This document shows, piece after piece, positions 10,465 through 62,276 of a stretch of 64,000 nucleotides of DNA. Source of the stretch: Clostridium sp. CAG:594 (GTDB lineage Bacteria > Bacillota_I > Bacilli_A > RF39 > UBA660); NCBI GenBank assembly GCA_000434835.1, contig FR881490.1:56374-120373 (forward strand). Reading direction: 5' to 3'. Each line of letters starts with the position of its first letter. Positions within the stretch are counted from its first letter, which is position 1. Made by a program: the position numbers and the translations under genes. The notes beneath the pieces were generated by a model. It had not been told where the DNA came from and made no database searches. It worked only from the letters and a program-made list of their open reading frames with translations.

Positions 10465-10607
10465 CCTTGTGGAATAGTGGCTAATTTTCCCACTTTGGAT
10501 GTGGATTAAAAACACTTAGTTTTCCTTTAAAAATAAAGAAATTTTAAGTTTTCCACATTATCCACAGTAATAATAAAAATACTATTAATAATAAGGAGAA
10601 ATATAAT
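10465..10607. promoter_or_regulatory. oriC, downstream DnaA-box cluster plus AT-rich unwinding element (incB/DUE-like)
   Basis: TTGTGGAAT, TGTGGATTA, TTTTCCACA and a perfect TTATCCACA, followed by an AATAATAAAAATA… tract before dnaN. Confidence 0.7.
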
Positions 10608-11729
10608 ATGAAATTTAGTATAAAAAAAGAAGTTTTACTTCACAGTTTAAATTCTGTAAGTAAAGCTTTATCTAGTAAAAACTTAATTCCAGTATTATCT
10701 GGTATAAAATTTAATTTAACAAATGAAGGTTTATTTTTAAGTGCTAGTGATAATGATATTAGTATTGAATCATTTATAGATAAAAGTAAATTAGAAGAAA
10801 TAAATGAAGTAGGTACTACAGTTATTCAAGGTAAATATATATTAGAAATAATAAGAAAATTAGAAGGTAGAATAGTTAATATTGAACTTTTAGATAACAT
10901 AAAAGTATTAATTTCCTGTGGAAACTCTGAATTTAACTTAAATTCAATGGATGCAGCAGAATTTCCTAATTTAAATATGGAAGAGAAGAAAGAACCTATT
11001 ATTATAAGAAAAACAGAATTTAAGAACTTAATTAACAAAACGTCTTTTGCTATATCATCACAAGAGACAAGACCAATATTAACTGGTATTAATTTTAAGA
11101 TAAACGAAGATAAGTTAGAATGTATCTCAACTGATTCATATAGATTAGCTAAAAAATATGTTACTTTATCAAATAGTGTATCTGAAGATATAAACATAGT
11201 AATACCCGGTAAAAACTTAATAGAATTAACTAAAATATTAGAAGAAACTGATGATGATATAGAGATGCACGTATTTAGTAATAAAGTTTTATTTAAGTTT
11301 GATAATACTTTATTCCAAACTAGGGTACTTTCTGGAACGTTCCCTGATGTTAATAGGTTAATACCAGCATCATTTGAATTAGAAGTAAAAGCAAATGCTA
11401 ATGAATTTTATAATGTAATAGATAGAGCAGCACTTTTAACTAGTGAAAAAGATAAGAACATAGTTAAATTTGAATGCGATGGAAATGAAGTTATAGTTTC
11501 ATCTAATTCACCAGAAATCGGACGTGTTGAAGAGAAGATGGACGTTGAAAAAAATAATGATACAAATATAAAAATAGCATTTTCTTCAAGATTTATGATG
11601 GATGCTTTAAGAACTGTTGAAAGTAAAGACGTTGTTTTATGTTTTAATAATGATGTACAGCCAATTATCATTAAAGATTCTAAGGATGATACTTTACTAC
11701 AACTTATATTACCAATAAAAACATACTAA
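10608..11729 (+). CDS. dnaN: DNA polymerase III beta sliding clamp
   Basis: 373 aa in the conserved position. Confidence 0.95.
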   Translation: MKFSIKKEVLLHSLNSVSKALSSKNLIPVLSGIKFNLTNEGLFLSASDNDISIESFIDKSKLEEINEVGTTVIQGKYILEIIRKLEGRIVNIELLDNIKVLISCGNSEFNLNSMDAAEFPNLNMEEKKEPIIIRKTEFKNLINKTSFAISSQETRPILTGINFKINEDKLECISTDSYRLAKKYVTLSNSVSEDINIVIPGKNLIELTKILEETDDDIEMHVFSNKVLFKFDNTLFQTRVLSGTFPDVNRLIPASFELEVKANANEFYNVIDRAALLTSEKDKNIVKFECDGNEVIVSSNSPEIGRVEEKMDVEKNNDTNIKIAFSSRFMMDALRTVESKDVVLCFNNDVQPIIIKDSKDDTLLQLILPIKTY

Positions 11730-11752
11730 ACTAGCTAAAATGCTAGTTTTTT
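11730..11752 (+). terminator. Rho-independent terminator after dnaN
   Basis: CTAGC-taaaatg-CTAG hairpin followed by TTTTTT. Confidence 0.45.
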
Positions 11753-11837
11753 AATTTTTGTAACAAAATATGACAAAATTCTTAAAAATACTGTGGATAA
11801 TAGATTGGCATAACTTGAAAGGAAAGGGTTTTGGAAT

Positions 11838-12299
11838 ATGAATGAATACGAAATAAACGCACAAACACTTGCAATAATACCAATAGGCAAGGAAAGAAGT
11901 AAAATAATTGAAGTAAATGGGGATTACATTATAAATAAGTCTCCTATAAAAATATTAGATGATAGCTGCAAATTCTTTGGTAGTAGCTACGAAGGGAGGT
12001 TTTGTGGTACTAAAACGTTAACTGGTATAACGCATAAGTCACCAATAATAGTAGAAGAAAGTAAAAGAATTATCTTTTTTCCTACTAAATCTCCTAGAAC
12101 ATCTACTTGTACTTGGCTTTCTTTTAATAATATAGCAGAGTATGATGGTGATGGAAAAGATTCGGTTATTAAGTTTTCTTGTGGAAAAATGCTTAGACTC
12201 CATATTTCTTATGGAATTTTAGATAATCAGATACTTAGATCAACTAGACTTGAAGCAATGTTACTAAGAAGAATGCATGATTTTATGAAAAGTATATAA
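11838..12299 (+). CDS. ComK-family competence transcription factor-like protein (C-terminally short)
   Basis: ILDDSCKFFGSSYEGRFCGT…ITHKSPIIVEESKRIIFFPTKSPRTSTCTWLS…FSCGKMLRLHISYGILDNQILRSTRLEAM aligns with the B. subtilis ComK core (IVDRSCRFFGSSYAGRKAGT…ISHKPPIMV…IFLFPTLSS…FSNGKTMELPISYNSFENQVYRTAWL). About 40 aa shorter at the C-terminus. Confidence 0.6.
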   Translation: MNEYEINAQTLAIIPIGKERSKIIEVNGDYIINKSPIKILDDSCKFFGSSYEGRFCGTKTLTGITHKSPIIVEESKRIIFFPTKSPRTSTCTWLSFNNIAEYDGDGKDSVIKFSCGKMLRLHISYGILDNQILRSTRLEAMLLRRMHDFMKSI

Positions 12300-12422
12300 A
12301 AAATGCATCTTTTTTTATAAATTATAAGAAATTAGCCTTATTTTGTGATATAATTAGTATGTATGTAGTAGTATACTCAAAATAGGTGTAGGTGGTTTAA
12401 ATGGGCTTTAAAATACTGAATT

Positions 12423-13535
12423 ATGTTTTTAAGGAAACTTGAGTTAAATAATTTTAGAAACATTTCTAAAATAGATTTTGAATTTAATAAAAATATTAAC
12501 ATTTTTATAGGAAACAATGCCCAAGGAAAAACCAATGTATTAGAAAGTATATATTTTCTTGCAATAACAAGATCACACAGAACTCATAACGAATTAAATT
12601 TAATAAAGAATGATGCACTTTATACTAAGGTATCTGGAACGTTTTTTGATGATTCAAAAAATACCCATATGCTATCTATTTTATTAAATGAAAAGGGAAA
12701 AAAGGTATCTGTTGATAATATTATGCAAAAAAAGATAAGTAATTATTTATCTAGATTAAATGTTATTATGTTTTGTCCTGATGACCTAGAAATAATAAAG
12801 GGAACTCCTGCTACTAGAAGAAAATTTTTAAATATAGAACTTTCACAGTTTAAGAAAGATTATGTTTTTCAACTTAAAGAATATAATCAGGTTTTAAAAC
12901 AAAGAAACGAGTATTTAAAGCAAAAAAATAATGCTAAATTTGATAAAACTTACTTTAGCATTTTAACGGAAAAACTTGTTATTAAAAACATAGAATTAGT
13001 AAAAATTAGGTATGATTTTATAAATAAAATAAACAATTATCTAAAAGATGTTTTTGATAAAATTGCAGGATTTGGTAATTTAGAGATTAAATATAAAAGT
13101 TTTATACATGAACAAGACTTAAATAAAGTCGATTTAAAGGACTTTATTATAAATAAGTATAATTCTATGTTTATGAATGAATTGCTTCAAAAAACGACTC
13201 TTTTAGGCTGTCACAAGGATGATTTTAAGATGTATTTAAATGATCTTGATGTAACAGAGTTTTCATCTCAAGGACAACAAAGATTATCTATTTTAAGTTT
13301 AAAATTAGCAGAAATAGAAGTTTTTGTTAAGGAAAAACATACAAAACCTATTATTTTACTAGATGATATATTTAGTGAACTAGATGAAATAAAGAAAAAT
13401 AATATTATAGATTATTTTAAAGAAGATATACAAATATTTATTACTACTACTGATATAAAAGACATAAATGATGAATTAAAGGCTAAATCTGATATTTATG
13501 TTGTGGATAATGGTAATTTTAATAAGGAGGATTAG
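12423..13535 (+). CDS. recF: DNA replication and repair protein RecF
   Basis: Walker A GNNAQGKTN and SMC-like architecture. An extended -10 (TTGTGATATAAT) lies upstream. Confidence 0.9.
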   Translation: MFLRKLELNNFRNISKIDFEFNKNINIFIGNNAQGKTNVLESIYFLAITRSHRTHNELNLIKNDALYTKVSGTFFDDSKNTHMLSILLNEKGKKVSVDNIMQKKISNYLSRLNVIMFCPDDLEIIKGTPATRRKFLNIELSQFKKDYVFQLKEYNQVLKQRNEYLKQKNNAKFDKTYFSILTEKLVIKNIELVKIRYDFINKINNYLKDVFDKIAGFGNLEIKYKSFIHEQDLNKVDLKDFIINKYNSMFMNELLQKTTLLGCHKDDFKMYLNDLDVTEFSSQGQQRLSILSLKLAEIEVFVKEKHTKPIILLDDIFSELDEIKKNNIIDYFKEDIQIFITTTDIKDINDELKAKSDIYVVDNGNFNKED

Positions 13536-13538
13536 ATT

Positions 13539-15467
13539 ATGGCAGAAAATAACGAACATTATGATGCTTCCGATATTCAGGTCTTAGAGGGATTAGAAGC
13601 CGTAAGAAAAAGACCAGGTATGTACATTGGTACTACTGATGTAAAAGGATTACATCATTTAGTTTGGGAAATTGTAGATAATGCAATAGATGAATCATTA
13701 GCTGGTTATTGTAATAATATTGAAATTATTATAAATAAAGATAACTCTGTTACCGTAAAAGATGATGGCCGTGGTATACCAGTTGATATTCACCCAAAAA
13801 CAAAGATATCTACAGTAGAAACTGTATATACAGTACTTCATGCTGGAGGTAAATTTGGTGGAGGCGGATACAAGGTATCAGGAGGTCTTCATGGTGTTGG
13901 TGCATCAGTTGTTAATGCACTATCTAAATGGGTAGAAGTAACTGTTTATAAAAATAGTAAGATTTATAAAATAAGATTTGAAAATGGTGGGCATACTACT
14001 CATCCATTAGAAGTTATCGGAGAATGTGAAGAAAATAGAACTGGTACTTGGGTAACATTTAAACCAGATCCAGAAATATTTGATACGGATATTTATGATT
14101 ATGAAACCTTAAAGGTAAGAGTAAGAGAACTTGCTTTCTTAAATAAAGGTTTACGTATCACTTTAAGAGATGATCGTGATTTAGAAGATACAACTGGAGA
14201 AACTTTTATATATGAAGGTGGTATTTCAGAATATGTTAAGTTTATAAATCAAGGAAAAACTCCTATTCATGAGGATATAATTCATTTAGAGGGTATGGAA
14301 GAAAACGTATTTTTTGAAGTAGCACTTCAATATAATACTGGATATAATGATAACATTTATTCTTTTGTTAACAACATTAATACCCATGATGGTGGAACTC
14401 ATGAGGAAGGTGTTAAACGTGCATTAACAAGAGTTATAAATAATTATGCAAGAAAAAACAACATATTAAAAGAAAAAGATGAGTCTTTAACTGGTGATGA
14501 TGTTAAAGAAGGTTTGACAATGATTATATCTTGTAAACATCCAAACCCACAGTTTGAAGGACAAACAAAAGGAAGACTTGGTAACTCAGAAGTAAGAAAA
14601 TTAGCCGATAAGGTATTTTCAGAAGGTTTCGAAAAATTCTTACTTGAAAACCCAGATGAAGCAAAAATTATTGTTAATAAAGCAATGCTTGCATCACGTG
14701 CAAGACACGCTGCTAAAAAGGCAAGAGAAATAACTCGTAAAAGTGATTTAGCAACAACTAATTTCTTTGGAAAGTTATCTGATTGCAAGAGTAAAGATCC
14801 AAAAGTATCAGAAATTTTCATAGTCGAGGGGGATTCAGCTGGTGGATCTGCTAAAAAAGGTAGGGATTCAATGACTCAAGCTATACTTCCTTTAAGAGGC
14901 AAGATATTAAACGTAGAAAAAGCAAGACTTGATAGAGCCCTTGGAAATGAAGAAATAAGAACCATTATTACTGCATTTGGTACTGGTATTGGAGATGAAT
15001 TTAATTTAGATAAATTAAGATATGACAAAATCATAATAATGACCGATGCCGATGTTGATGGATCTCATATAAGAGTATTATTACTTACGTTATTTTATAG
15101 ATTCTTTAGACCAATTGTAGAAGCAGGGCATGTTTATGCAGCACAACCACCATTATTTAGAATAATGCATGGTAAAACTCGTAAATACGTACTTGATGAA
15201 CCTGAAAAAGAAGCTTATTTAGCATCTTTACCTGAAAATGTTCGTGCAAGAGCTGAAATCGCACGTATGAAAGGTTTAGGAGAGATGGATGCTGAAGAAC
15301 TAAACGAAACAACAATGGATATTGAAAAAAGAGTATTAAGAAAGATCACTGTAGAAGATTGTGTAGCAGCAGATGCTATGTTTGGTAAATTAATGGGTGA
15401 AGAAGTAGAACCTAGAAGAAAATTTATCGAAGATAATGCACAATATGTTAAAAATTTGGATATTTAA
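13539..15467 (+). CDS. gyrB: DNA gyrase subunit B
   Basis: 642 aa with GHKL ATPase and TOPRIM motifs (EGDSAGG). Confidence 0.97.
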
Positions 15468-15480
15468 GGAGGTGTAATAA

Positions 15481-18033
15481 ATGGAAAATAAAGAAGAAAA
15501 AGAAATAAAAGAAGAAACAACTAATGATGAATTTGGAGGAACTTTTCACGAAAGAGATTCTCACGCAGAAAATGATATAGTAAAAGAAATTTCTGATTCA
15601 TTCCTTGATTATTCAATGAGTGTTATTACATCCCGTGCAATACCAGACTTAAGAGATGGTTTAAAACCAGTTCATAGAAGAATATTATGGTCAATGTTTG
15701 AAGAAGGAAATACCCCAGATAAGCCTCATAAAAAATCTGCTACAACAGTTGGTTATGTTATGGGACATTATCATCCACATGGTGATTCATCTATTTATGA
15801 AGCAATGGTTAGACTTGCACAAGATTTTAACCAAAGATACATGATGGTTGATGGTCATGGTAACTTTGGTAATATTGAAGGCGATGGTGCAGCAGCATAT
15901 CGTTATACTGAAGCAAGATTATCAAAAATATCTCTTGAAATGTTAAGAGATATAAGAAAAAATACAGTTGATATGGATGATAACTTTGATGAAACTTGTA
16001 AAGAGCCTAAGGTTTTACCATCAAGATTTCCTAACGTATTAGTAAATGGTTCAATGGGTATAGCAGTAGGTATGGCAACAAATATTCCACCACACAACTT
16101 AGGTGAAGTAATAGACGGATGTGTTGCATACATAGATAATCCAGATATTGATGTAAACGGATTAATGAATTATATTAAAGGTCCTGATTTTCCAACAGGT
16201 GGCATAATTTTAGGTAATTCAGGAATTAAAAAAGCTTATGAAACTGGTAGAGGATCAATTACTATCCGTTCTAGAACATCAATTGAGGAAGTAGGAAATC
16301 ATAGTCAAATAGTAATTACAGAAGTGCCTTATGGAACAAACACTTTGGATTTAAAAAACAAAGTAGCAGAACTTGTACATAATAAAACAATTGAAGGCAT
16401 TTCTGATTACCACACTGATTTAAAAAATGGTGTAAAAATAACAATAACATTAAAGAGAGATGCTAATCCTCAGGTTGTATTAAATAATTTATTTAAACAT
16501 ACTAATTTTCAAATTAATTATGGAATAATTTTCCTAGTAATTGATAATGGAACTCCAAGAACTTTAGGATTAAAGGATATTATTTCAAAATACATTGATC
16601 ATCAAAAAGAAGTTATTATAAGAAGAACTAAATATGAGTTAAATGAAGATGAAAAAAGAGTTCATATTTTAGAAGGTTTAAAAATAGCTTTAGATAATAT
16701 CGATGAAGTGGTAAAAATAATTCGTGGTGCTGATGATGATCAGGATGCAAAAGAAAAATTAATGACTAAGTTTGGTCTTGATGAAATTCAAAGTAATAGC
16801 ATACTAGAAATGCGTTTAAGACGCTTAACAGGCTTAGAAAGAGATAAAATAGAAAATGAATTAAATGAATTATTAAAAGAAATAGAAGAATTAAGAGCAA
16901 TTTTAGCGTCAGAACAAAAAGTTCTTGACATAATAAAAGAAGAAATGCTTGAAATTAAGAAAAAATATGCTGATGAAAGAAGAACTTCTATTGATATGAC
17001 TGCTATTGATTATATTGAGGATGAATCATTAATTCCTGTTGAAGATATAGTTGTTGCATTAACTCATAAAGGTTATGTTAAAAGAATGGCCAGAGATACT
17101 TATAAACTACAAAATAAAGGTGGTGTAGGAATTAAGGGCATGTCAACTAACGAAGAAGATTTTGTTGAAATACTTAAATCCGGAAAAACTCATGACCATG
17201 TTATGTTTTTTACTAATAAAGGTAAAGTTTATAGATTAAAAGGTTATGAAATACCAGAATTTTCAAGACAATCTAAGGGATTACCAATAATTAATTTATT
17301 GCCAATTGAAAAAGATGAAAAAATAAATAGCATATTATTAGACGATGACAGTGAAAATAACAAATATTTAGTTGTAGCTACTAAATATGGATTAGTAAAA
17401 CGAACAAACGTATCGGAATTTGAAAATATTAGAAAAAATGGTAAGATAGCTGTTACATTAAAAGATGGCGATGAGGTATTATCCGTTCACTTTACTTCTG
17501 GTAATGATGATGTAATAATTGCTGCCAATAATGGTAGAATGATTAGATTCAATGAAAATGAAATAAGAGTAATGGGAAGAACAGCAACAGGTGTAAAAGG
17601 TATTGAATTGATAGATGATTGTTATTGTGTTGGTTGTGAAATTGCAAGAGAAGGACAAGAAGTTTTAGTAGTAACTGAAAAAGGTTACGGAAAACGTACA
17701 GATATTAATGAATATAGATTAACTCATAGAGGTAGTAAAGGTGTCAAAACTCTTAATATAACCGAAAAAAATGGTACAATAGTAGCATTTAGAACAATCA
17801 CTGATGACAAAGATTTAATGATTATTACTGATCAAGGCATTGTTATTAGAATTTCAGCTGATAAAGTATCAAGAATGAGTAGAGTCACACAAGGTGTTAG
17901 ATTAATGAATTTAAGAGAAGGACAAAAAGTATCTACAGTGTCAGTAGTTGAAAAAGATGAAGAAAACACTAATGAAAATGAAACAACATCAAATGATACA
18001 TCAGAAAAAGAAACAAAAGAGGCTAGTGAATAG
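15481..18033 (+). CDS. gyrA: DNA gyrase subunit A
   Basis: 850 aa with the active-site region AAAYRYTEARL. Has an acidic C-terminal tail. Confidence 0.97.
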   Translation: MENKEEKEIKEETTNDEFGGTFHERDSHAENDIVKEISDSFLDYSMSVITSRAIPDLRDGLKPVHRRILWSMFEEGNTPDKPHKKSATTVGYVMGHYHPHGDSSIYEAMVRLAQDFNQRYMMVDGHGNFGNIEGDGAAAYRYTEARLSKISLEMLRDIRKNTVDMDDNFDETCKEPKVLPSRFPNVLVNGSMGIAVGMATNIPPHNLGEVIDGCVAYIDNPDIDVNGLMNYIKGPDFPTGGIILGNSGIKKAYETGRGSITIRSRTSIEEVGNHSQIVITEVPYGTNTLDLKNKVAELVHNKTIEGISDYHTDLKNGVKITITLKRDANPQVVLNNLFKHTNFQINYGIIFLVIDNGTPRTLGLKDIISKYIDHQKEVIIRRTKYELNEDEKRVHILEGLKIALDNIDEVVKIIRGADDDQDAKEKLMTKFGLDEIQSNSILEMRLRRLTGLERDKIENELNELLKEIEELRAILASEQKVLDIIKEEMLEIKKKYADERRTSIDMTAIDYIEDESLIPVEDIVVALTHKGYVKRMARDTYKLQNKGGVGIKGMSTNEEDFVEILKSGKTHDHVMFFTNKGKVYRLKGYEIPEFSRQSKGLPIINLLPIEKDEKINSILLDDDSENNKYLVVATKYGLVKRTNVSEFENIRKNGKIAVTLKDGDEVLSVHFTSGNDDVIIAANNGRMIRFNENEIRVMGRTATGVKGIELIDDCYCVGCEIAREGQEVLVVTEKGYGKRTDINEYRLTHRGSKGVKTLNITEKNGTIVAFRTITDDKDLMIITDQGIVIRISADKVSRMSRVTQGVRLMNLREGQKVSTVSVVEKDEENTNENETTSNDTSEKETKEASE

Positions 18034-18065: not shown

Positions 18066-18126
18066 AGGTATATAAAATAAATATCAAAATTAACTTGCTA
18101 AAATTCAAATAATATAATAAAATAAT

Positions 18127-18206
18127 ATTGCACAACAGGAATGTTAGAACCAGGTCAGGCTCGAGAGATAGCAGCCTTAATAACCTCTTTCTGTGTGTGC
18201 TTTTAT
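18127..18206 (+). ncRNA. ffs: Signal recognition particle RNA, small 4.5S-like form (candidate)
   Basis: ACCAGGTCAGG…AGCAGCC matches the SRP domain IV consensus ACCAGGUCAGG-UCCGGAAGG-AAGCAGCC. The apical GNRA tetraloop GAGA is closed by a compensatory TC/GA stem (E. coli has CC/GG). The 5' GCACA pairs with the 3' TGTGC, followed by a U-tract. A -10-like TATAAT sits upstream. Confidence 0.5.
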
Positions 18207-18219
18207 TTTATATAAAATA

Positions 18220-18237
18220 ATGTTCCACGTGAAACAT
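18220..18237. repeat. Palindrome copy 2 (ATGTTCCACGTGAAACAT), followed by AGGTATACAAAAAT
   Basis: Seen directly. Confidence 0.7.
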
Positions 18238-18264
18238 AGGTATACAAAAATAAAAAGAAGGGTA

Positions 18265-18282
18265 ATGTTCCACGTGAAACAT
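18265..18282. repeat. Palindrome copy 3, immediately upstream of the tadA start
   Basis: Seen directly. Its ATG is in frame with tadA. Confidence 0.7.
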
Positions 18283-18297
18283 AGTATTAAATATTAT

Positions 18298-18708
18298 ATG
18301 GAAGAAAAATATTATGAAGAAATAATAAAATTAGCTAAAAAAGCCTACAAAAAAGGGGAAGTGCCGGTTGGTGCAATTGTAGTAAAAGATGGTAAGATAC
18401 TTTCTAAGGCATATAATAGAGTTGAAAAAGATAGAGATGCAACTATGCATGCGGAAATCTTAGCTATTAAAAAGGCATCTAAAAAAATAAAAAACTGGAG
18501 ATTAAATAATTGCGAAATGTATGTAACATTAGAACCTTGTATGATGTGTACTGCAGCAATAGAATTAAGTAGAATAAAAAAAGTACATTATTTACTTAAA
18601 AGAGATAAAGAAATAATAAAAAGCAAAGAAAAGTATATTTATGAAGAAACTGAATCTAGTCAAGAGGTTTTAGAACTATTACAATCGTTTTTTAAAAGTA
18701 AAAGATAA
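18298..18708 (+). CDS. tadA: tRNA-specific adenosine deaminase TadA
   Basis: HAE…PCMMC zinc motif. The N-terminus MEEKYYEEIIKLAKKAYKKGEVPVGAIVV aligns with TadA. The track's upstream extension consists only of palindrome-encoded MFHVKH. Confidence 0.85.
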   Translation: MEEKYYEEIIKLAKKAYKKGEVPVGAIVVKDGKILSKAYNRVEKDRDATMHAEILAIKKASKKIKNWRLNNCEMYVTLEPCMMCTAAIELSRIKKVHYLLKRDKEIIKSKEKYIYEETESSQEVLELLQSFFKSKR

Positions 18709-54229: not shown

Positions 54230-55558
54230 ATGAAAGATGTTTATAAGTTTCTGGATTCTTTACATATAAAAAAGGAAGATATTATAACAGTTGCAGTATC
54301 TTATGGACCAGATTCTATGTTTTTACTTAATTTATTAAATAATAAATATAAAGAAAATAAAATTATTTGTTGTCACGTGCATCATAATCATAGAAAAGAA
54401 AGTGATTTAGAAAAGGAAAATCTAGAAAAATTTTGTATGAAAAATAATATTATTTTTGAATTTATGAAAATAGATAAATATAAGAATAATAAGTTTACTG
54501 AAGAAGAAGCAAGAGAAAAAAGGTATGAATTCTTTGATGAAGTACTAAAAAAATATAATTCTAAGTATTTATTTACAGCTCATCATGGGGATGATTTGGT
54601 TGAAACGATTCTTATGAAAATATCTAGAGGTTCTACGATTAAAGGTTATAGTGGAATAAATCTAATATCTAAAAGGGATAATTATTCTATTATAAGACCT
54701 TTATTGTATTTAACAAAAGATGATATAAATAAAGATTGTATAAAAGAAAATATTCCTTTTGCTGTGGATAACTCTAATACAAGTGATGAATATAAGAGAA
54801 ATAGGTACAGAAAGTATGTTTTGCCTAAATTAAAAGATGAAAATAAACTTATCCACAGGAAATTTATAGATTTTTCATTAGAATTAAAAAAATATGATGA
54901 TTATGTATCTAAAATGGTATTAAAGATTTATCCTAAGGTAGTTAAGGATAATAATTTGGATATTTCTTTGTTGTTGAAAGAAGATGATTTAATAATAGAG
55001 AAAGTACTAGAAAAATATTTATTTTATATGTATAAAAAAGACATAGGAAAAGTAACTTCTAAAAATAAAAAAGACATCTTAAAAATGATAAAAAGTAAAA
55101 GACCTAATAGTACATTATCAATGCCAAACAATAAAAAAATAATAAAAGACTATAATAAGATATATTTCGCGGATGATATAACTTATAATAATTGGTGTTT
55201 TACGTTTGATAAAGAACTTCATTTACCTAATGGATACGTAATAAAAAAGATAGATAAACTAAATAATACAACTAATTTTTATGCAGCGTTTAACTCATCT
55301 GAAATATCACTTCCTATTATTGTTAGAACTAAAAACGATGGTGATAGGATAAGCGTCTTAAATCTATCTGGGTTTAAAAAGTTAAAGGATATATACATAG
55401 ATGAAAAACTTAGTATGAAACAAAGGCATAATCAGCCCGTTGTAACAGATAGTAATAATGAAATAATATGGCTTCCAGGCCTTAAAAAATCTAAATATGA
55501 TAGGTCAAAAAGAGGAAACTATGATATAATATTAGAGTATTACAAGGAGGAACAATAA
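54230..55558 (+). CDS. tilS: tRNA(Ile)-lysidine synthetase
   Basis: PP-loop variant SYGPDSM and the TilS C-terminal domain. Confidence 0.85.
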   Translation: MKDVYKFLDSLHIKKEDIITVAVSYGPDSMFLLNLLNNKYKENKIICCHVHHNHRKESDLEKENLEKFCMKNNIIFEFMKIDKYKNNKFTEEEAREKRYEFFDEVLKKYNSKYLFTAHHGDDLVETILMKISRGSTIKGYSGINLISKRDNYSIIRPLLYLTKDDINKDCIKENIPFAVDNSNTSDEYKRNRYRKYVLPKLKDENKLIHRKFIDFSLELKKYDDYVSKMVLKIYPKVVKDNNLDISLLLKEDDLIIEKVLEKYLFYMYKKDIGKVTSKNKKDILKMIKSKRPNSTLSMPNNKKIIKDYNKIYFADDITYNNWCFTFDKELHLPNGYVIKKIDKLNNTTNFYAAFNSSEISLPIIVRTKNDGDRISVLNLSGFKKLKDIYIDEKLSMKQRHNQPVVTDSNNEIIWLPGLKKSKYDRSKRGNYDIILEYYKEEQ

Positions 55559-57544
55559 ATGCAGAATAATCAAAATATGAAAAAGGGAATGTTTCCTTAT
55601 GTAATGTTATTAGTAATTGGTCTTGCCATAATGTTTTTATATAACATGACTAATAATATGAATAAGGAATTAACATATAATGAGTTTAATAAGGCATTAA
55701 ATAAAAATAATATTAAAGAAGTTGTTATAACGCCTTCTACGCAAGCTTACACATACCAATTAACAGGTACGCTAAGAGATTCTAAAAAAGGAGAAACATT
55801 TAGTGTTAAAACACCACTTTCTGATACTGTTATTAAACAAATAGTAAGTGCAAGTGAGAAAAAGGACTTTAAGATAGTATCTAAATCAGATCCTACATCA
55901 AGTACTTGGTTTATGTTTTTAACTAACATACTTCCTTACATAGTTTTAATTGGTATTGCATTTTGGTTCTTTACAAAGCAACTAGGTGGTCAAAAAGGAT
56001 CAATGGACTTTGGAAGAAGTAGGGCTAAATTAAATCCTGATAAGGGAAAAGTAACATTTAAGGATGTTGCAGGATTACCAGAAGAAAAAGAAGAGTTACA
56101 AGAGTTAATTGATTTTCTAAAAAATCCAAAGAAATTTACTAAATTAGGAGCTAGAATACCTAAAGGTGTTTTACTTGTAGGTCCTCCAGGAACTGGTAAA
56201 ACATTACTTGCTAAGGCAGTTGCAGGAGAAGCAAACGCACCATTTTACTTTATATCTGGTTCTGATTTCGTTGAATTATACGTTGGTATTGGAGCATCAA
56301 GAGTAAGAGATATGTTTAAGCAAGCAAAGCAAAATGCACCTTGTCTAATATTTATTGATGAAATCGATGCAGTAGGTCGTCAACGTGGTACAGGTATTGG
56401 TGGAGGCCATGATGAAAGAGAGCAAACTCTTAACCAATTATTAACTGAAATGGATGGCTTTGGAGCAAACGAAGGAATTATAATAATTGCTGCAACTAAC
56501 AGACCTGACGTACTTGATCCAGCACTTTTAAGACCAGGAAGATTTGATAGGCAAGTAACTGTTGCTCTTCCAGAACAAAAAGCAAGGGAAGAAATATTAA
56601 AAGTACACGCAAGAAATAAAATATTATCTAAAAACGTACACTTAGATAATATTGCAAAAAGAACAGTTGGTTTTTCTGGAGCTGATTTAGAGAACTTACT
56701 TAATGAGGCTGCATTACTTGCGGTTAGAAGAGAAAAAAATGCTATTACAATGTCTGAAATAGATGAGGCAATAGATAGAGTTATCATGGGACCTGCTAAG
56801 GTAACTAAAAAATATACTAAAGAAGAAAAGAAGTTAGTAGCATATCATGAAGCTGGACACGCTGTATTAGGAATAAAATTAGATAATGCAAATGATGTTC
56901 AAAAGGTAACTATTATTCCACGTGGTCAGGCTGGTGGATATAACTTAATGCTTCCAAAAGAAGAAAAATATACAGCAACTAAAACAGAATTATTAGAACA
57001 AATAATGGGATTACTTGGTGGTCGTGTTGCGGAAGAAGTTGTGTTTGGTGAAATAACAACGGGAGCGCACAATGACTTTTCAAAGGCAACAAAGATTGCT
57101 AGAAGCATGGTAACAGAATATGGAATGTCTAGTCTAGGACCAGTTCAATTAGAAACTCCAGAAGGAAGTTCTTTCTTAGGAAGAGATTATAATAAAAATA
57201 GAAACTTCTCTGACCAAGTAGCATTAGAAATAGATAATGAAGTTAGAAAAATAATTAATGATTGTTATAGTAAAGCTAAAAAGATAATAGAAAAAAATAG
57301 AGATTTACTTGATTTAATAGCTTCTAACTTAATTGAGCACGAAACATTAACAAAAGAACAAATCGATTACATAGCAGAAAATGGTAAGATGCCAGTTGAG
57401 GAAATGCTAGATGATGTAAACCTTTCAAAACTAAAAGAAATGGCTAAGGCTCAAGGGATTAAAGGTTATTCTTCAATGAATAAAGATGAACTTAAAAAGG
57501 CTTTATCAAATGATTCATCAGAAGAAGAGAAAAAAGACGACTAA
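55559..57544 (+). CDS. ftsH: ATP-dependent zinc metalloprotease FtsH, with a C-terminal Rho_N/SAP-like tail
   Basis: Walker [12 protein letters not shown], and HEAGH zinc motif. The tail is [28 protein letters not shown]. Confidence 0.95.
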
Positions 57545-57628: not shown

Positions 57629-58207
57629 ATGACGTATGAAGAAATTACTAATAAAATACTTGGAATGTTTAGTAAGGATATGGCACCCGAAGAAAGAAAA
57701 TTACTTATTATGTTATATGATACTTGTACTTATAATAAAGATTGGGATGATGAGCCAACATTTAGTTTGTTAAGAGTTAAAACGTCATTTGATAATATCA
57801 CCAAAAAAATGTCTAGCATATTTAATATAAAATCAAGTAGATTAAAATATGTTGATTCCGATCTTTATGATAAGGATATGTCTAATTTACATGTTGATAT
57901 GGAAAGTTTAAATAAAATAAGAGAGAATACTCACGAATTTAAACATAATTCTGAAAATAAAAGAGATACATTTGATAAGTTTAAAATTGAATTAATGGAA
58001 GATTATATAATGTTAGAAGATTGTATTCAAAATTACAGTGATGATAATAAAATTTTAAAAGCAAAAATTATGAAATTATTAACAGATATGGAAATACTAC
58101 TAGGTTTACCAGTAACATTTACATCAAAAATTCCAATGTGTGTTAGTGAGATTATTGAAAAAGAAAAAAAACAAGAACAAAAAGGTGGTGTAACTCATGT
58201 TAAATGA
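57629..58207 (+). CDS. Hypothetical protein (island gene 1, 192 aa)
   Basis: ORF with a GGAGG RBS. No recognisable domain. Its 3' end overlaps gene 2. Confidence 0.5.
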   Translation: MTYEEITNKILGMFSKDMAPEERKLLIMLYDTCTYNKDWDDEPTFSLLRVKTSFDNITKKMSSIFNIKSSRLKYVDSDLYDKDMSNLHVDMESLNKIRENTHEFKHNSENKRDTFDKFKIELMEDYIMLEDCIQNYSDDNKILKAKIMKLLTDMEILLGLPVTFTSKIPMCVSEIIEKEKKQEQKGGVTHVK

Positions 58208-60017
58208 CATATTATATGAAATTAAAAATAAATATGAAAAAGATATTGATACCTTATCTGACAATGTAGTTGCATTACAAAATAGTTTGAACGATGAAAT
58301 AAATATTAACAGCGCAATAAGAAACTTTATAGAAGAATATAGGTCATCACATAAAATTAATTTTGATATTCTTGAGCCTTATAGAAAACTTTTGATTGAA
58401 CGTGGAATAATAGAGGATAAAGATTATAAAAATCTAATAAAGATAAAGGAAGAGTTAGAAGTTGATTTTCCTGAAAAAACTATAAAAATAAAAGAAGAAT
58501 TAAGCAAACTAGTAAATAGTTGTAATTCATATTCGATGAATCATACAAAAAAATATCAGTTGATAGTTAAGGAAAAGTCGAATTTTGAATATATAGCAAG
58601 TGGGAAAAAGGAAGAATTAAGTAATATTAATATGTTACTTGAAGGAAAGATTTTTGATGAAAATATATATGACACCATAAATGATATACCATATATTAAA
58701 CCTGAAGAAAAAGAAGAAATTTATTTTAATATAACTCTTAATGGAATTAAAACTTTTAATTCATATATTTCAATGGAAGCTAAAAAACAGGAAGAATATA
58801 AAAAGCAAAAAATGCTTAATGAGGCAAGGAAAGTTAATCGTAAAAGAAAACAAAATATAGAGTTAGATAAAAAAGTAAATCATAGTGAAGAAAATCTAGT
58901 TGGTTTATCAGATGAAGAATTAGATCTTATAAAACGAGCTGAGAAAATAGTAAATGAAAATAACACTGAAAATGATGCTTTTTTAAAGACTTTGGTTGGA
59001 TTAGATTATATTGAAATGTTAGATTATATTGAAGGAACAAAAAATGTAGAAGAAAAAATAGCTATTGTATTAAAACAACAACTAATTCCTCAATTAAAGG
59101 CTGGAAAATTAGTAAATGCAAAAAAAGTTTTAGAAACTTATATATCAAAATATAATTTTATTAAAGAATCAAATATTCCTGAAAATAAGTTGAAACGAGT
59201 TGGAAAGGAATATGTTTTACAAACTATGGATATGGCCAAAAATATGCTTCAAAATTTAGATAAAGAAGGTGGTTATTATTCTTATATAGAAAAGCCATTG
59301 TTGGATATGGAGTATGCTATTGAATCTGATGAAGTACTTAATGATCCTTATTTTGATGAACTATATGATACATTGAAGAACGCCATAAACTATGTTTCCG
59401 AACTAATGAATAGTAATAATATAGAACAAGAGCAGAATTCTGAGAAACAAGTCTCTGATCTTGAATTTTATGGTAAAGATACCAATAATTTAATTATATT
59501 TGCAGATGGGATAGATTTATCAAAACAAATTGATGAAAATGAAACATTAAATTTTTCTCATAAAAAGAAAGTTTTGAAAGCTTTAGAAAAAATGTCCAAA
59601 GATCCTAATATATTAATTACTTCAAACCATAAAGTTAAAGATAATATAAATAAAGATAAATATAAGTTTTTAAGAAGCTATAAATCTTCTGATTATAGAA
59701 TTGTTTATAGAGTGTTTGCTGCATCAGGGCTAAGCAAATTATATGGTAAGAAGATGAATGTGGTATTTCCTATTCGTGTATTTTATGGAGCAACAGATGA
59801 AAAAGATGCTGATTTTAAAAAGGCTAAGCAAATGTATGGTACGGTTCATAAAGAAATAGAAAAATATATAGAAATTTTGAATTCTGATGACTATGATGAT
59901 ATAAAAGATATTGTATCAGAACAAAAAAAGAAAATTGATAAATTTATAAAGGATAGTGATCCTAAAAATCCAGGGGATTCAGGTATTGGTTCATTAGGAG
60001 GTGGTAGTGATGAATAA
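58197..60017 (+). CDS. Hypothetical 606-aa protein (island gene 2): long K/E-rich N-terminal region plus a C-terminal RelE/ParE-like domain
   Basis: The C-terminus LNFSHKKKVLKALEKMSKDPN…KYKFLRSYKSSDYRIVYRV…MNVVFPIRVFYGATDEKD has a RelE/ParE-superfamily pattern (…kkl.kk…L…dP…R…dYRiiYri…vv.ilrigh). AAAGGTGGTG RBS. Overlaps genes 1 and 3. Confidence 0.5.
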   Translation: MLNDILYEIKNKYEKDIDTLSDNVVALQNSLNDEININSAIRNFIEEYRSSHKINFDILEPYRKLLIERGIIEDKDYKNLIKIKEELEVDFPEKTIKIKEELSKLVNSCNSYSMNHTKKYQLIVKEKSNFEYIASGKKEELSNINMLLEGKIFDENIYDTINDIPYIKPEEKEEIYFNITLNGIKTFNSYISMEAKKQEEYKKQKMLNEARKVNRKRKQNIELDKKVNHSEENLVGLSDEELDLIKRAEKIVNENNTENDAFLKTLVGLDYIEMLDYIEGTKNVEEKIAIVLKQQLIPQLKAGKLVNAKKVLETYISKYNFIKESNIPENKLKRVGKEYVLQTMDMAKNMLQNLDKEGGYYSYIEKPLLDMEYAIESDEVLNDPYFDELYDTLKNAINYVSELMNSNNIEQEQNSEKQVSDLEFYGKDTNNLIIFADGIDLSKQIDENETLNFSHKKKVLKALEKMSKDPNILITSNHKVKDNINKDKYKFLRSYKSSDYRIVYRVFAASGLSKLYGKKMNVVFPIRVFYGATDEKDADFKKAKQMYGTVHKEIEKYIEILNSDDYDDIKDIVSEQKKKIDKFIKDSDPKNPGDSGIGSLGGGSDE

Positions 60018-61794
60018 TTTAAAAGATTTAATTGTATTATTAGAAAAGGAAATTCGTTATACTTCAAATGATAAAATAAAAAAGTTGGAACTTGCATCAG
60101 AAAAACTGAATTCTCCAATGAACTACACTAAAGAATCAATAGAAAATTTAAATGAAATATTAATAGATGAGGTTCGTTTAACAGAAGATGAGTTAGATAG
60201 AATTCGTAATTTTGCTAAGTTGAGCGATACTGCTAAAAAATATTATCTTCATGATGCATACTCAGAGGAAGATAAAGTACTTTATTCGATACCAGAAAGA
60301 ATTAATAAAAGTAAAGAATTTTACCAAAGTAAAAAAATAGGGGAAATTAATGTAAAAAAATTAAAAAGAAAACTAACCGGTAAATTAAATGAACTAATTA
60401 ATGAAGATGAAATAAATATTATTAATAACTGCCTTAAGAAAAATAATATTTCAGGAAAAAACATCTGGAAAGAAATACATAAAATCAATTTTAATATATT
60501 TAAAAATTACAATATAAATACGCAAGAGTTAGGAACTATTGTTTTAGAAGAAACTAATGTAGATGAAAAAGAGCTTGTTAAGCTATTAGCTTCTTATGGC
60601 ATTGATTTTTCTGAGTTTACAAAAAATGATAAAAGTACATTATTGTTGTATGCTGATTTAGGAAAGATAGATGAATTGTTGAAATTCTTGCAAGATGAAA
60701 ACGCTCTTACTACTAAGTTGACAAAATACACTGGTATTTTAACTTTGATGTTTATTAGAACTTCACTTCAAGATTTAATAAATTTAAAAGAGTCGACAAT
60801 TGGTATTGATTTTAAAGATCTTGTTAGTATTTTTCCGACAGCACTATATCCAAATGTACGCACTTATTCAAGAAAAAAAATAATAGGTTCAGAATTCATT
60901 CAGACACAAGAAAGTGGATTATTAACCACAATTCAAAAAAATGCTCAACTTATGAATGAAAATGGTATAGATATTCAGTATGTCTGGGATGAATGTCCTT
61001 CTTTCCTTAAACAGAGTAATAGTGCAAATAAAGATAATATTGCTGGATTAAAATCTTACGGGATTTCGTTACTTGATGAAAATGGTAAACCTAAAAAAAT
61101 GCTTAGTGTACTAGGTAATAGAAACCCAAGTATGATAGATATTTATGATACTGCATTAGAAGCGGATGCTAAAGAATATGCCCTTAATAATTTATCTAGT
61201 TTGGCTCCATCGACAAGATATAAATTTAATTTGATAAAAGCTGCGAAAGCACTAGGCATGCCTGATTCTGATATTTTTAGAGGTTATAGAGCACCTAATA
61301 GAGAGTTATCATTAAATCTAAAAAAATTATCCTTAAATCCTCGCCTTTCAACTGATATAGACAAACAAAATGAACTTTATGGTAAGGTTAATATAGAGAT
61401 ACCAAATTTTAGAGTATATGATAATTTATTTGATATAGTAAATCCTATAAATGTATCAGAAGAAGTATTAGACGATAAAAATATTAAAGCTATTGAAAGA
61501 TTTAAAGAATCAGAAGAGCTTTATAATTTTAATGGAGTTAAAATATCGAGAAGAAAGGTTTTAAGGCTCTATAGTACTTTAATGCAAAATGATAAGTCAG
61601 ATGAAATGGATGCTTTATTATATTGTATAACTTATGGCAGTATGTTAGATAAAAATGAATTAAGAAATATTTATAGTTTGGTAAAAAAGGTATGTAATTT
61701 TAATAATGTTTCTAGTTTTGATGTTAATACAACTAGTTATGTTGATATAAAAAATGAGGCAAAAGCTATGGTAAATGGAGGTAAAAATGGTTAA
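60010..61794 (+). CDS. Hypothetical protein (island gene 3, ~594 aa)
   Basis: ATG 9 nt after a GGAGG RBS, embedded in the end of gene 2. No recognisable domain and no Walker motif. Confidence 0.5.
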   Translation: MNNLKDLIVLLEKEIRYTSNDKIKKLELASEKLNSPMNYTKESIENLNEILIDEVRLTEDELDRIRNFAKLSDTAKKYYLHDAYSEEDKVLYSIPERINKSKEFYQSKKIGEINVKKLKRKLTGKLNELINEDEINIINNCLKKNNISGKNIWKEIHKINFNIFKNYNINTQELGTIVLEETNVDEKELVKLLASYGIDFSEFTKNDKSTLLLYADLGKIDELLKFLQDENALTTKLTKYTGILTLMFIRTSLQDLINLKESTIGIDFKDLVSIFPTALYPNVRTYSRKKIIGSEFIQTQESGLLTTIQKNAQLMNENGIDIQYVWDECPSFLKQSNSANKDNIAGLKSYGISLLDENGKPKKMLSVLGNRNPSMIDIYDTALEADAKEYALNNLSSLAPSTRYKFNLIKAAKALGMPDSDIFRGYRAPNRELSLNLKKLSLNPRLSTDIDKQNELYGKVNIEIPNFRVYDNLFDIVNPINVSEEVLDDKNIKAIERFKESEELYNFNGVKISRRKVLRLYSTLMQNDKSDEMDALLYCITYGSMLDKNELRNIYSLVKKVCNFNNVSSFDVNTTSYVDIKNEAKAMVNGGKNG

Positions 61795-62083
61795 TGACGA
61801 TTTAAAAAAAATAAACATTAGTAAGGAATGTTTAGAAGTAGTAAAAAATACCTTTGATTATGATACTATAGTTTCACTGGCATATAATTATGAAAATATA
61901 AATAATAATATAAAAATGTTAAAATCTTATGGTCTAAAAGACATTGATAGGTTTTTTATTGAGAAAAATCATATTTTTTTGATAAAAAGTGAATTATTAG
62001 CTAAAAAATTTTCTAAATTTAATATACCTGTTTTTATGGAAATTATAAATAATGATTATAGTGCAATAGATAAAATTTTTTAA
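61775..62083 (+). CDS. Hypothetical protein (island gene 4, ~100 aa)
   Basis: ORF overlapping the end of gene 3. Alternative start at 61787 after a GGAGG RBS. A hairpin plus T-tract follows at ~62120–62180. Confidence 0.4.
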   Translation: MEVKMVNDDLKKINISKECLEVVKNTFDYDTIVSLAYNYENINNNIKMLKSYGLKDIDRFFIEKNHIFLIKSELLAKKFSKFNIPVFMEIINNDYSAIDKIF

Positions 62084-62215
62084 TAGATAGTTATAATAAT
62101 GTAACTTAATGTTTATGTGGAAGTATCCTATTGAATGTTTTTGCTGAATTACATTTCATCATAGGACTTCTTTTTTTAGTGCCTTTTCCCTAAATTATTT
62201 AGATTATAAGAGAAT

Positions 62216-62250
62216 ATTGACATTTAAGTATTTATATGTTAGTATAAATG
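62216..62250 (+). promoter_or_regulatory. Candidate promoter for island gene 5
   Basis: TTGACA, ~17 nt, then TATAAAT. This lies inside the track's N-terminal extension of the ORF, so the real start is the downstream ATG. Confidence 0.35.
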
Positions 62251-62276
62251 GCATTTATGGGAAAAGGGGTTTTGAT

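Follow-up and report, generated by a model that had tools for sequence, protein, structure and literature searches.

A short-form ComK gene in the replication-origin operon of RF39 bacteria and a conserved DnaA box at its putative promoter

The replication initiator DnaA doubles as a transcription factor, as in the autoregulation of dnaA, at sda of Bacillus subtilis and at other promoters that carry DnaA boxes, and the slot between dnaN and recF at the Firmicute origin of replication (oriC) usually holds yaaA, which encodes an S4-domain protein. Among DnaA-box promoters, that of gidAB-parAB in Pseudomonas aeruginosa provides an example (PMC13438810). Competence has been linked to the origin in Streptococcus pneumoniae, where competence operons near oriC respond to replication stress through the dosage of comCDE and comAB (PMC5034851), and in B. 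subtilis, where ComK is the master regulator that governs competence and the K-state, phosphorylated Spo0A (Spo0A~P) binds the comK promoter directly (PMC3297582). Here we describe a stretch of 64,000 nucleotides (nt) of Clostridium sp. CAG:594 (contig FR881490.1, positions 56,374 to 120,373; hereafter the window), a member of the order RF39, in which the slot between dnaN and recF is occupied by a gene of the ComK family and a perfect DnaA box lies shortly upstream of its start codon.

The origin region of the window reads rnpA/rpmH, dnaA-dnaN-comK-recF-gyrB-gyrA, according to the list of open reading frames (ORFs) and to the Pfam labels on identical public contigs. Its landmarks are the following.

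before dnaA, minus strand: rnpA-rpmH
9112-10464: dnaA
10608-11729: dnaN
11838-12299, plus strand: comK coding sequence, 153 amino acids (aa), a short-form ComK without the MecA degron tail
12423-13535, plus strand: recF

Unlike comK of B. subtilis, a solitary gene far from oriC, the window gene thus lies within the origin operon. It has the slot and orientation of yaaA, but its sequence is unrelated to that of YaaA, and the gaps beside it are too short to hold a second gene. The protein is identical to CDA80746.1 (Clostridium sp. CAG:594); it is named 'competence protein ComK' in metagenome-assembled genome records of Candidatus Aphodocola, and ComK at NCBI and JGI. Ca. Aphodocola corresponds to genus CAG-594 of the Genome Taxonomy Database, family CAG-433, order RF39 (PMC8035907). 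The order is characterized by small genomes and has no member in culture; the G+C content of the genome studied here is only 28%. Thousands of assembly blocks encode this exact ComK protein, and those contigs that were inspected stem from human-gut metagenomes. The identity of the gene as ComK is therefore already public. Its position and promoter are undiscussed in the literature found, in that publications on RF39 with ComK, competence or DNA uptake, or on comK with dnaN, recF or a DnaA box, contained nothing on the arrangement.

A first, sequence-only reading of this DNA had assigned the gene to the ComK family rather than to yaaA, and a profile search bore this out. The PF06338 profile, which has 152 positions, matched over positions 2-151 with E=7.6e-41 and a score of 139.8 bits, the cutoff being 22.3; no S4 domain was found in the 153-aa protein, for which ComK was the sole Pfam match at E values up to 10, and NCBIfam gave no match for it. 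The ComK motifs quoted in that reading are all present in the ORF. In an alignment with B. subtilis ComK, the sequence of which was checked against Pfam (ComK domain, residues 10-158) and the published degron, identity was 40% over residues 9-158, which is the whole ComK domain. The two proteins belong to the same Pfam family end to end and share the invariant motifs CxFFGSSYxGR, HKxPI, FFPTxSP and SY..NQ; across 24 RF39 homologues 40 columns are invariant and the core ComK motifs are intact. By these comparisons, ORF 11838-12299 is not yaaA and encodes a genuine short-form member of the ComK family, predicted to be a DNA-binding regulator.

The window protein has 153 aa and B. subtilis ComK has 192. 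This difference had been ascribed to the absence of about 40 C-terminal residues, which is correct as to a C-terminal loss but too large, for only ~27-34 of the 39 residues are missing there and ~8 are missing at the N-terminus. The window protein stops 7 residues past the ComK domain, whereas that of B. subtilis has 34 more. The MecA-targeting sequence FMLYPKEERT... sits in this C-terminal tail in B. subtilis (PMC8138137), and the alignment shows that the MecA/ClpCP degron tail (FMLYPK...) is absent from the window ComK. The degron is a trait of B. subtilis regulation and does not define the family. Given that the tail is lacking, proteolytic control of the B. subtilis type is unlikely, and control would be expected to be mainly transcriptional. 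An AlphaFold model of the protein is confident (predicted local distance difference test score, pLDDT, 89.6) and shows a core rich in beta strands, two helices and, at the C-terminus, a long helix. No solved ComK relative came up when the Protein Data Bank (PDB) was searched by sequence. The only coherent PDB neighbours found by Foldseek were LytTR DNA-binding domains (AgrA, ComE), and the similarity is weak: the probability is 0.94-0.99 and the TM-score reaches 0.61 when normalised by target length, but the E values are only 0.05-0.2 and sequence identity is 8-18%. We regard the LytTR resemblance of the model as a lead and not as a classification.

The position of comK was then compared across RF39. 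A scan with one genome per species gave more than 586 genomes with a close homologue, of which the best 80 species-level loci were analysed. The ComK homologues of these loci are nearly all 147-154 aa in length. In 65 of the 80, whose DnaA proteins are 45%-100% identical to that of the window, comK adjoins dnaN, recF or both, and the synteny of relatives thus agrees with the placement of a ComK gene in the dnaN-recF slot by the sequence-only reading. The gaps that flank comK in the origin-slot loci measure 64-190 nt, except in nine species that have insertions of 0.8-2 kb between dnaN and comK, and gaps of this size leave no room for a hidden yaaA. In the remaining 15 loci (L031, L033-L039, L043, L048, L052, L054, L058, L071, L079) comK directly follows pcrA-ligA and is followed by gatCAB, cca-dnaD-nth or priA. 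The ComK proteins of this ligA slot form a single clade nested among the origin-slot ComKs in the protein tree, which argues that the origin slot is ancestral. Taken together, the loci indicate that comK in the origin slot is a conserved trait of the RF39 lineage and no one-off, and that a second conserved slot lies among replication and repair genes.

The junction of dnaN and comK is an insertion hot spot, and three of the inserts were inspected (L008, 3709-4842; L009, 3977-4141; L018, 3343-4737). The insert of L018 encodes an IS-type transposase, and L009 has a chimeric ORF in which the N-terminus of ComK is fused to the C-terminus of DnaN, a duplication scar. We considered whether yaaA is hidden in these inserts and rejected the idea, as there was no yaaA-like ORF in any of the three, where unannotated ORFs were judged by translation only.

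The sequence-only reading had also placed a perfect DnaA box near position 11791, about 45 nt upstream of comK. A 9-mer scan located it one nucleotide further on, and the boxes of the origin region are arranged as follows.

11792-11800, minus strand: perfect DnaA box TTATCCACA (TGTGGATAA on the plus strand), its end 37 nt and its start 46 nt before the comK ATG
8746-9017: oriC DnaA-box cluster upstream of dnaA, six boxes with at most one mismatch, the perfect one at 8962
10500-10566: oriC DnaA-box cluster between dnaA and dnaN, three boxes, the perfect one at 10558

The two clusters that flank dnaA constitute the usual two-part Firmicute oriC. Perfect boxes number 7 in the window, where 0.67 would be expected (a 10-fold excess), and none of 100 shuffled sequences reached 7. 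Apart from the comK box, every intergenic box in the 64 kb with no more than one mismatch falls in one of the two oriC clusters, and comK is ~1.2 kb from the dnaA-dnaN cluster. Perfect boxes also occur within coding sequences. Two of them (54763-54771 and 54849-54857) lie in opposite orientation, 86 bp apart, inside ORF 54230-55558, which together with the next ORF at 55559 was taken for tilS and ftsH, and another (1807-1815) lies inside ORF 1515-3338, taken for mnmG/gidA; all three genes were judged only by N-terminal sequence and gene order.

Conservation of the comK box was examined in a close clade of 28 species, in which DnaA is at least 87% identical to that of the window and ComK is 53-81% identical. 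The box is perfect in 17 of the 28, has one mismatch in seven and two mismatches in two, and is absent from the remaining two (L021 and L023). Its distance to the comK ATG is constant at 30-37 nt, even in the species with 0.8-2 kb inserted after dnaN, which argues that the box belongs to comK and not to dnaN or oriC. Mean column conservation is 0.925 within the box, compared with 0.76 in the rest of the upstream region, 0.835 at codon positions 1-2 and 0.66 at position 3. Two boxes served as controls: most species of the close clade keep the perfect oriC box ~50 nt before dnaN, at a frequency similar to that of the comK box, and a perfect box inside recF (window 13502) is common only to a few of the closest relatives. 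These figures indicate that selection acts on the box upstream of comK in close-clade species. That DnaA controls comK is a plausible reading and is better supported than chance.

The joint explanation that we consider the best, and to which we give slightly better than even credence, combines a promoter of comK's own, repression through a DnaA box on its -10 element, an ancestral control by Spo0A and the gene dosage conferred by the origin. In this scheme comK would be transcribed from a promoter between the dnaN terminator and the ATG, and in the Aphodocola-type clade that promoter would have been rebuilt such that a consensus DnaA box covers a -10-like GATAAT. DnaA bound at the box would, to judge from the geometry, block RNA polymerase and hold comK down, and a fall in free active DnaA, or its titration, would release comK. 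Ancestrally, control would have been exerted by Spo0A~P on tandem 0A boxes, which are visible in other RF39 clades and degenerate in the window. Proximity to oriC would give comK a gene dosage that is the highest, and the most sensitive to replication, of any on the chromosome, and that would rise when forks stall while initiation continues. The output of ComK, either DNA-uptake genes or the K-state, is suggested by homology only. A bolder proposal, which we advance tentatively and hold to be possible but not probable, is that DnaA gates a ComK switch in Aphodocola-type RF39, whereby competence or a growth-arrest/repair state would be triggered by replication status (DnaA occupancy plus dosage) in place of MecA/ClpCP control. 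If true, this would be the first initiator-controlled competence regulator, and abundant uncultured gut bacteria would be naturally transformable.

The elements that can be proposed between the dnaN terminator and the comK ATG are these.

11796-11801, plus strand: putative -10-like hexamer GATAAT, overlapping the DnaA box
11817-11828, plus strand: ribosome-binding region GAAAGGAAAGGG, rich in purines and located in a 5' untranslated region that is conserved

Several observations weigh against repression by DnaA at this site. The ATAAT part of the box is the most conserved (1.0; 26 of 28 species), while the DnaA-specific positions 2-5 (GTGG) score 0.79-0.89; some of the conservation might therefore be due solely to the -10 element. 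DnaA-regulated promoters often carry several boxes, and here there is a single box with no second one nearby. In distant RF39 clades the gene order is the same but no box precedes comK; DnaA regulation therefore cannot explain the position, which is older than the box. Furthermore, a canonical sigma-70 scan called no plus-strand promoter before comK, and the distance from a -35-like TGACA, whose GACA is invariant in the close clade, to GATAAT is 20 nt, which is not a canonical spacing. At the site equivalent to the box, L021, L023 and all distant clades have TGnTATAAG, and the box accordingly has the look of an ordinary extended -10 element that was later remodelled. Attempts to fit a spacer of 16-18 nt between TGACA and GATAAT, or to bring TGTG into the Firmicute -16 register, both failed, and readings of the comK promoter as a sigma-H promoter or as carrying a CodY box were dropped, since the sequences misfit the consensus sequences.

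One could envisage from these data that the 'DnaA box' is merely the -10 region of comK, in which TGTGGATAAT is kept for RNA polymerase or some other factor the match to TTATCCACA is fortuitous and DnaA has no role. The invariance of ATAAT relative to positions 2-5, the fact that only a few substitutions separate the box from the extended -10 element of L021, L023 and the distant clades, and the presence of a single box all speak for this view. We nevertheless find it rather unlikely. TGTG is one base out of register for the -16 element of the textbook Firmicute consensus TRTGnTATAAT, the G residues have been conserved even though the DNA is intergenic and the genome has only 28% G+C, all nine bases are kept in 17 of the 28 species at a rate about that of the oriC box before dnaN, and perfect boxes are 10-fold over-represented in the window. 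A second view, that the box serves replication as an outlying oriC or DnaA-titration site, or as a loading site for a DnaA filament, and stands before comK by chance, would be in keeping with its location 1.2 kb from the dnaA-dnaN cluster and with the binding of DnaA to box clusters outside oriC in B. subtilis. This appears very improbable, for the distance to the comK ATG is fixed whereas insertions change that to oriC by as much as 2 kb, and the comK box stands alone whereas titration sites come in clusters. Repression of comK by DnaA at the -10 element is the reading that we retain.

Upstream of the proposed -10 element lies a further candidate site.

11759-11775, plus strand: two degenerate tandem Spo0A-like boxes, TGTAACA-aaa-TATGACA, with a 10-bp period and 3 and 2 mismatches to TTCGACA

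The heptamer TTCGACA is the reverse complement of the 0A box TGTCGAA, a consensus that is conserved from Bacillus to Clostridioides difficile (PMC3485338). Distant origin-slot clades and several ligA-slot loci have no DnaA box before comK, and in them two or three direct TTCGACA repeats stand 10 bp apart in the same place; some ligA-slot loci have TCTACA-type repeats at ~11 bp instead. Across the loci, TTCGACA repeats are spaced by 10 bp (19 times) or 20 bp (12 times), and the motif is enriched 165-fold at -130 to -31 of comK, on one strand only. Nearly all perfect 0A boxes of the loci stand either upstream of comK (36) or in intergenic regions of dnaA/dnaN (20). Binding of Spo0A at oriC is known. 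Assignment of the repeats to an OmpR/PhoB-type regulator or to ComK itself was less favoured; Spo0A is preferred, given the exact 0A consensus, the tandem period of 10 bp and the occurrence of the repeats at dnaA/oriC as well. Two variations of the region downstream of the comK -10 element were also observed. In distant clades (e.g. L046, L055, L065, L070, L083) there is a hairpin between the -10 element and the ribosome-binding site, in which the stem sequence varies and the pairing is kept. In L063, L066, L067 and L078 this hairpin is replaced by two perfect 0A boxes that form a palindrome, TTCGACA-N4-TGTCGAA, similar to the Spo0A sites through which the comK promoter of B. subtilis is repressed.

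These repeats raise the possibility that the true switch in the window is Spo0A~P, or a different response regulator that recognises TGACA-type repeats, with DnaA as a modulator at most, the over-long spacer then being comparable to that of spoIIG. The invariant GACA 20-21 nt upstream of the -10-like element, the consensus tandem 0A boxes in the same place in relatives, the precedent of B. subtilis and the sporulation-type genes of the window all fit such a switch. These genes encode a YabG peptidase (E=4e-80), YabP, YabQ, SpoVG and a SpoVT-like protein (AbrB/MazE domain), within the stretches 27923-28486, 31181-31924, 39165-40040 and 41532-42158, and a sigma factor in the sigH position is encoded in the window as well; they agree with the prediction that RF39 bacteria form spores (PMC10868615). 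On the other hand, the window boxes have 2 and 3 mismatches, including one at the G5 contact position, there is no perfect 0A box in the 64 kb, where 3.5 would be expected, and spo0A was not located in the window. The absence of a perfect box counts likewise against the Spo0A component of our joint explanation. We therefore treat Spo0A as the main switch of the window promoter as conceivable, though doubtful, and keep to the proposed repression by DnaA.

On the 3' side of dnaN and of comK, and around the start of recF, the following features were found.

11728-11755, plus strand: dnaN intrinsic terminator, with an 8-bp stem (11728-11749), a 6-nt loop and a T-run, -11.8 kcal/mol
12291-12323, plus strand: weak, A-U-only hairpin after the comK stop codon, -5.4 kcal/mol, a doubtful terminator
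12346-12354, plus strand: extended -10 promoter TGaTATAAT of recF-gyrB-gyrA
12361-12376, plus strand: start of the recF transcript, with a leader motif, GTATGTAGTAGTATAC, that is conserved in the close clade
12401-12442, plus strand: 13-codon upstream ORF (MGFKILNYVFKET) with a GGTGG ribosome-binding site (12391-12395), overlapping the recF ATG at 12423

The terminator of dnaN that had been proposed upstream of comK is thus real. The extended -10 element claimed before recF is present too, but the accompanying hairpin is weak and contains only A-U pairs; the claim that comK is a separate transcription unit consequently holds on its 5' side and not on its 3' side, where there is no convincing comK terminator. 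Given the weakness of this A-U-only hairpin, read-through from comK into recF-gyrBA is likely. Many relatives in other clades have G+C-containing terminators after comK. The TGnTATAAT element precedes recF in every recF-containing locus examined, in close and distant clades alike. The leader motif that follows it is represented in distant clades by GTGTATAGGAGTAC, within a hairpin that has a species-specific stem sequence. Rfam gave no match in 11650-12550, and the only matches in the whole window were the signal recognition particle (SRP) RNA and the L10 leader; the motif could represent a leader or operator of recF-gyrBA that has yet to be characterised. The upstream ORF is in a frame other than that of recF, starts at -22, has 11-18 codons and is found in nearly all close-clade species, in which recF has no ribosome-binding site of its own. 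An upstream ORF with a strong site that overlaps the recF ATG makes translational coupling likely.

The observations on recF bear on a further alternative, namely that the protein is a ComK-fold regulator without a role in DNA uptake, which governs the adjacent recF-gyrBA (pcrA-ligA in the sister clade) or a growth-arrest state. Both slots, dnaN|recF and pcrA-ligA|comK (15 loci), lie among replication and repair genes, and the weak terminator suggests read-through into recF. Moreover, and this also counts against our own proposal, the B. subtilis-type K-box (AAAA-N5-TTTT, twice), which serves autoactivation at the comK promoter, is absent from the window when at most one mismatch and spacers of 8 or 18 bp are allowed, although the specificity of RF39 ComK may differ. 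None of comE, comF, comG and dprA was among the annotated ORFs of the 64-kb window. Against a regulator of this kind stand the core ComK motifs, which are intact and invariant with no sign of an altered DNA specificity, and the very strong, conserved promoter that recF has of its own; in addition, a swap of gyrBA alleles next door (see below) shows recombination with foreign DNA, though it is no proof of transformation. We consider the alternative improbable and continue to regard the protein as a putative competence-type regulator.

Compared with the closest described systems, the locus combines features that are otherwise found apart. As in B. subtilis, several Spo0A boxes occur in the comK promoter of RF39 relatives of the window; the window promoter differs in having a DnaA box and no canonical K-box in or near it. 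The origin-proximal competence genes of S. pneumoniae described by Slager and Veening are similar in that an early competence regulator lies beside oriC and increases in copy number under replication stress, but they belong to the ComDE/ComX family rather than to ComK, and the window has a predicted initiator site in addition. With DnaA-controlled promoters the locus shares a consensus 9-mer that is conserved among relatives, here at a putative -10 element; it differs in its single box and in its putative target, a competence-type regulator, for which no such case was present in the literature found. There is nothing categorically new in the arrangement, and the regulation of comK by DnaA is what we infer from it. 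What is new, as judged from the compared loci, is a degron-less short ComK fixed in the origin operon across an order, with a putative promoter that carries Spo0A boxes or a DnaA box, according to family.

The human gut commonly harbours RF39 bacteria, and the conservation of ComK across the order suggests that they may be capable of natural DNA uptake, which would have a bearing on their evolution, nutrient scavenging and future genetics. Through the conserved DnaA box, competence-type regulators would join the genes read by the replication initiator, and the locus would be a second, independent example, after the pneumococcus, of competence control in the origin region. The loci also constitute a clean comparative dataset, in which the putative promoter of one and the same gene carries Spo0A boxes in some families and a DnaA box in another.

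Three observations were made elsewhere in the window. At 58197-63953, no Pfam family matches any of four consecutive ORFs (606, 597, 102 and 579 aa) at E values up to 0.001. The listed start of a tadA-like deaminase ORF (18193-18705) overlaps the SRP RNA gene at 18121-18213 (Rfam RF00169), and its true start is probably further downstream. Finally, same-species contigs (L005; also L001, L003 and L004) are 97-100% identical to the window from 6838 to ~13437, and identity drops abruptly to 62-88% from gyrB (13539) through gyrA (window 13438-17331); L002 has the window-type allele. The alignments indicate a within-species replacement of the gyrB-gyrA allele, with its breakpoint at the recF/gyrB junction near the perfect DnaA box at 13502, and such a swap beside comK fits a freely recombining lineage.

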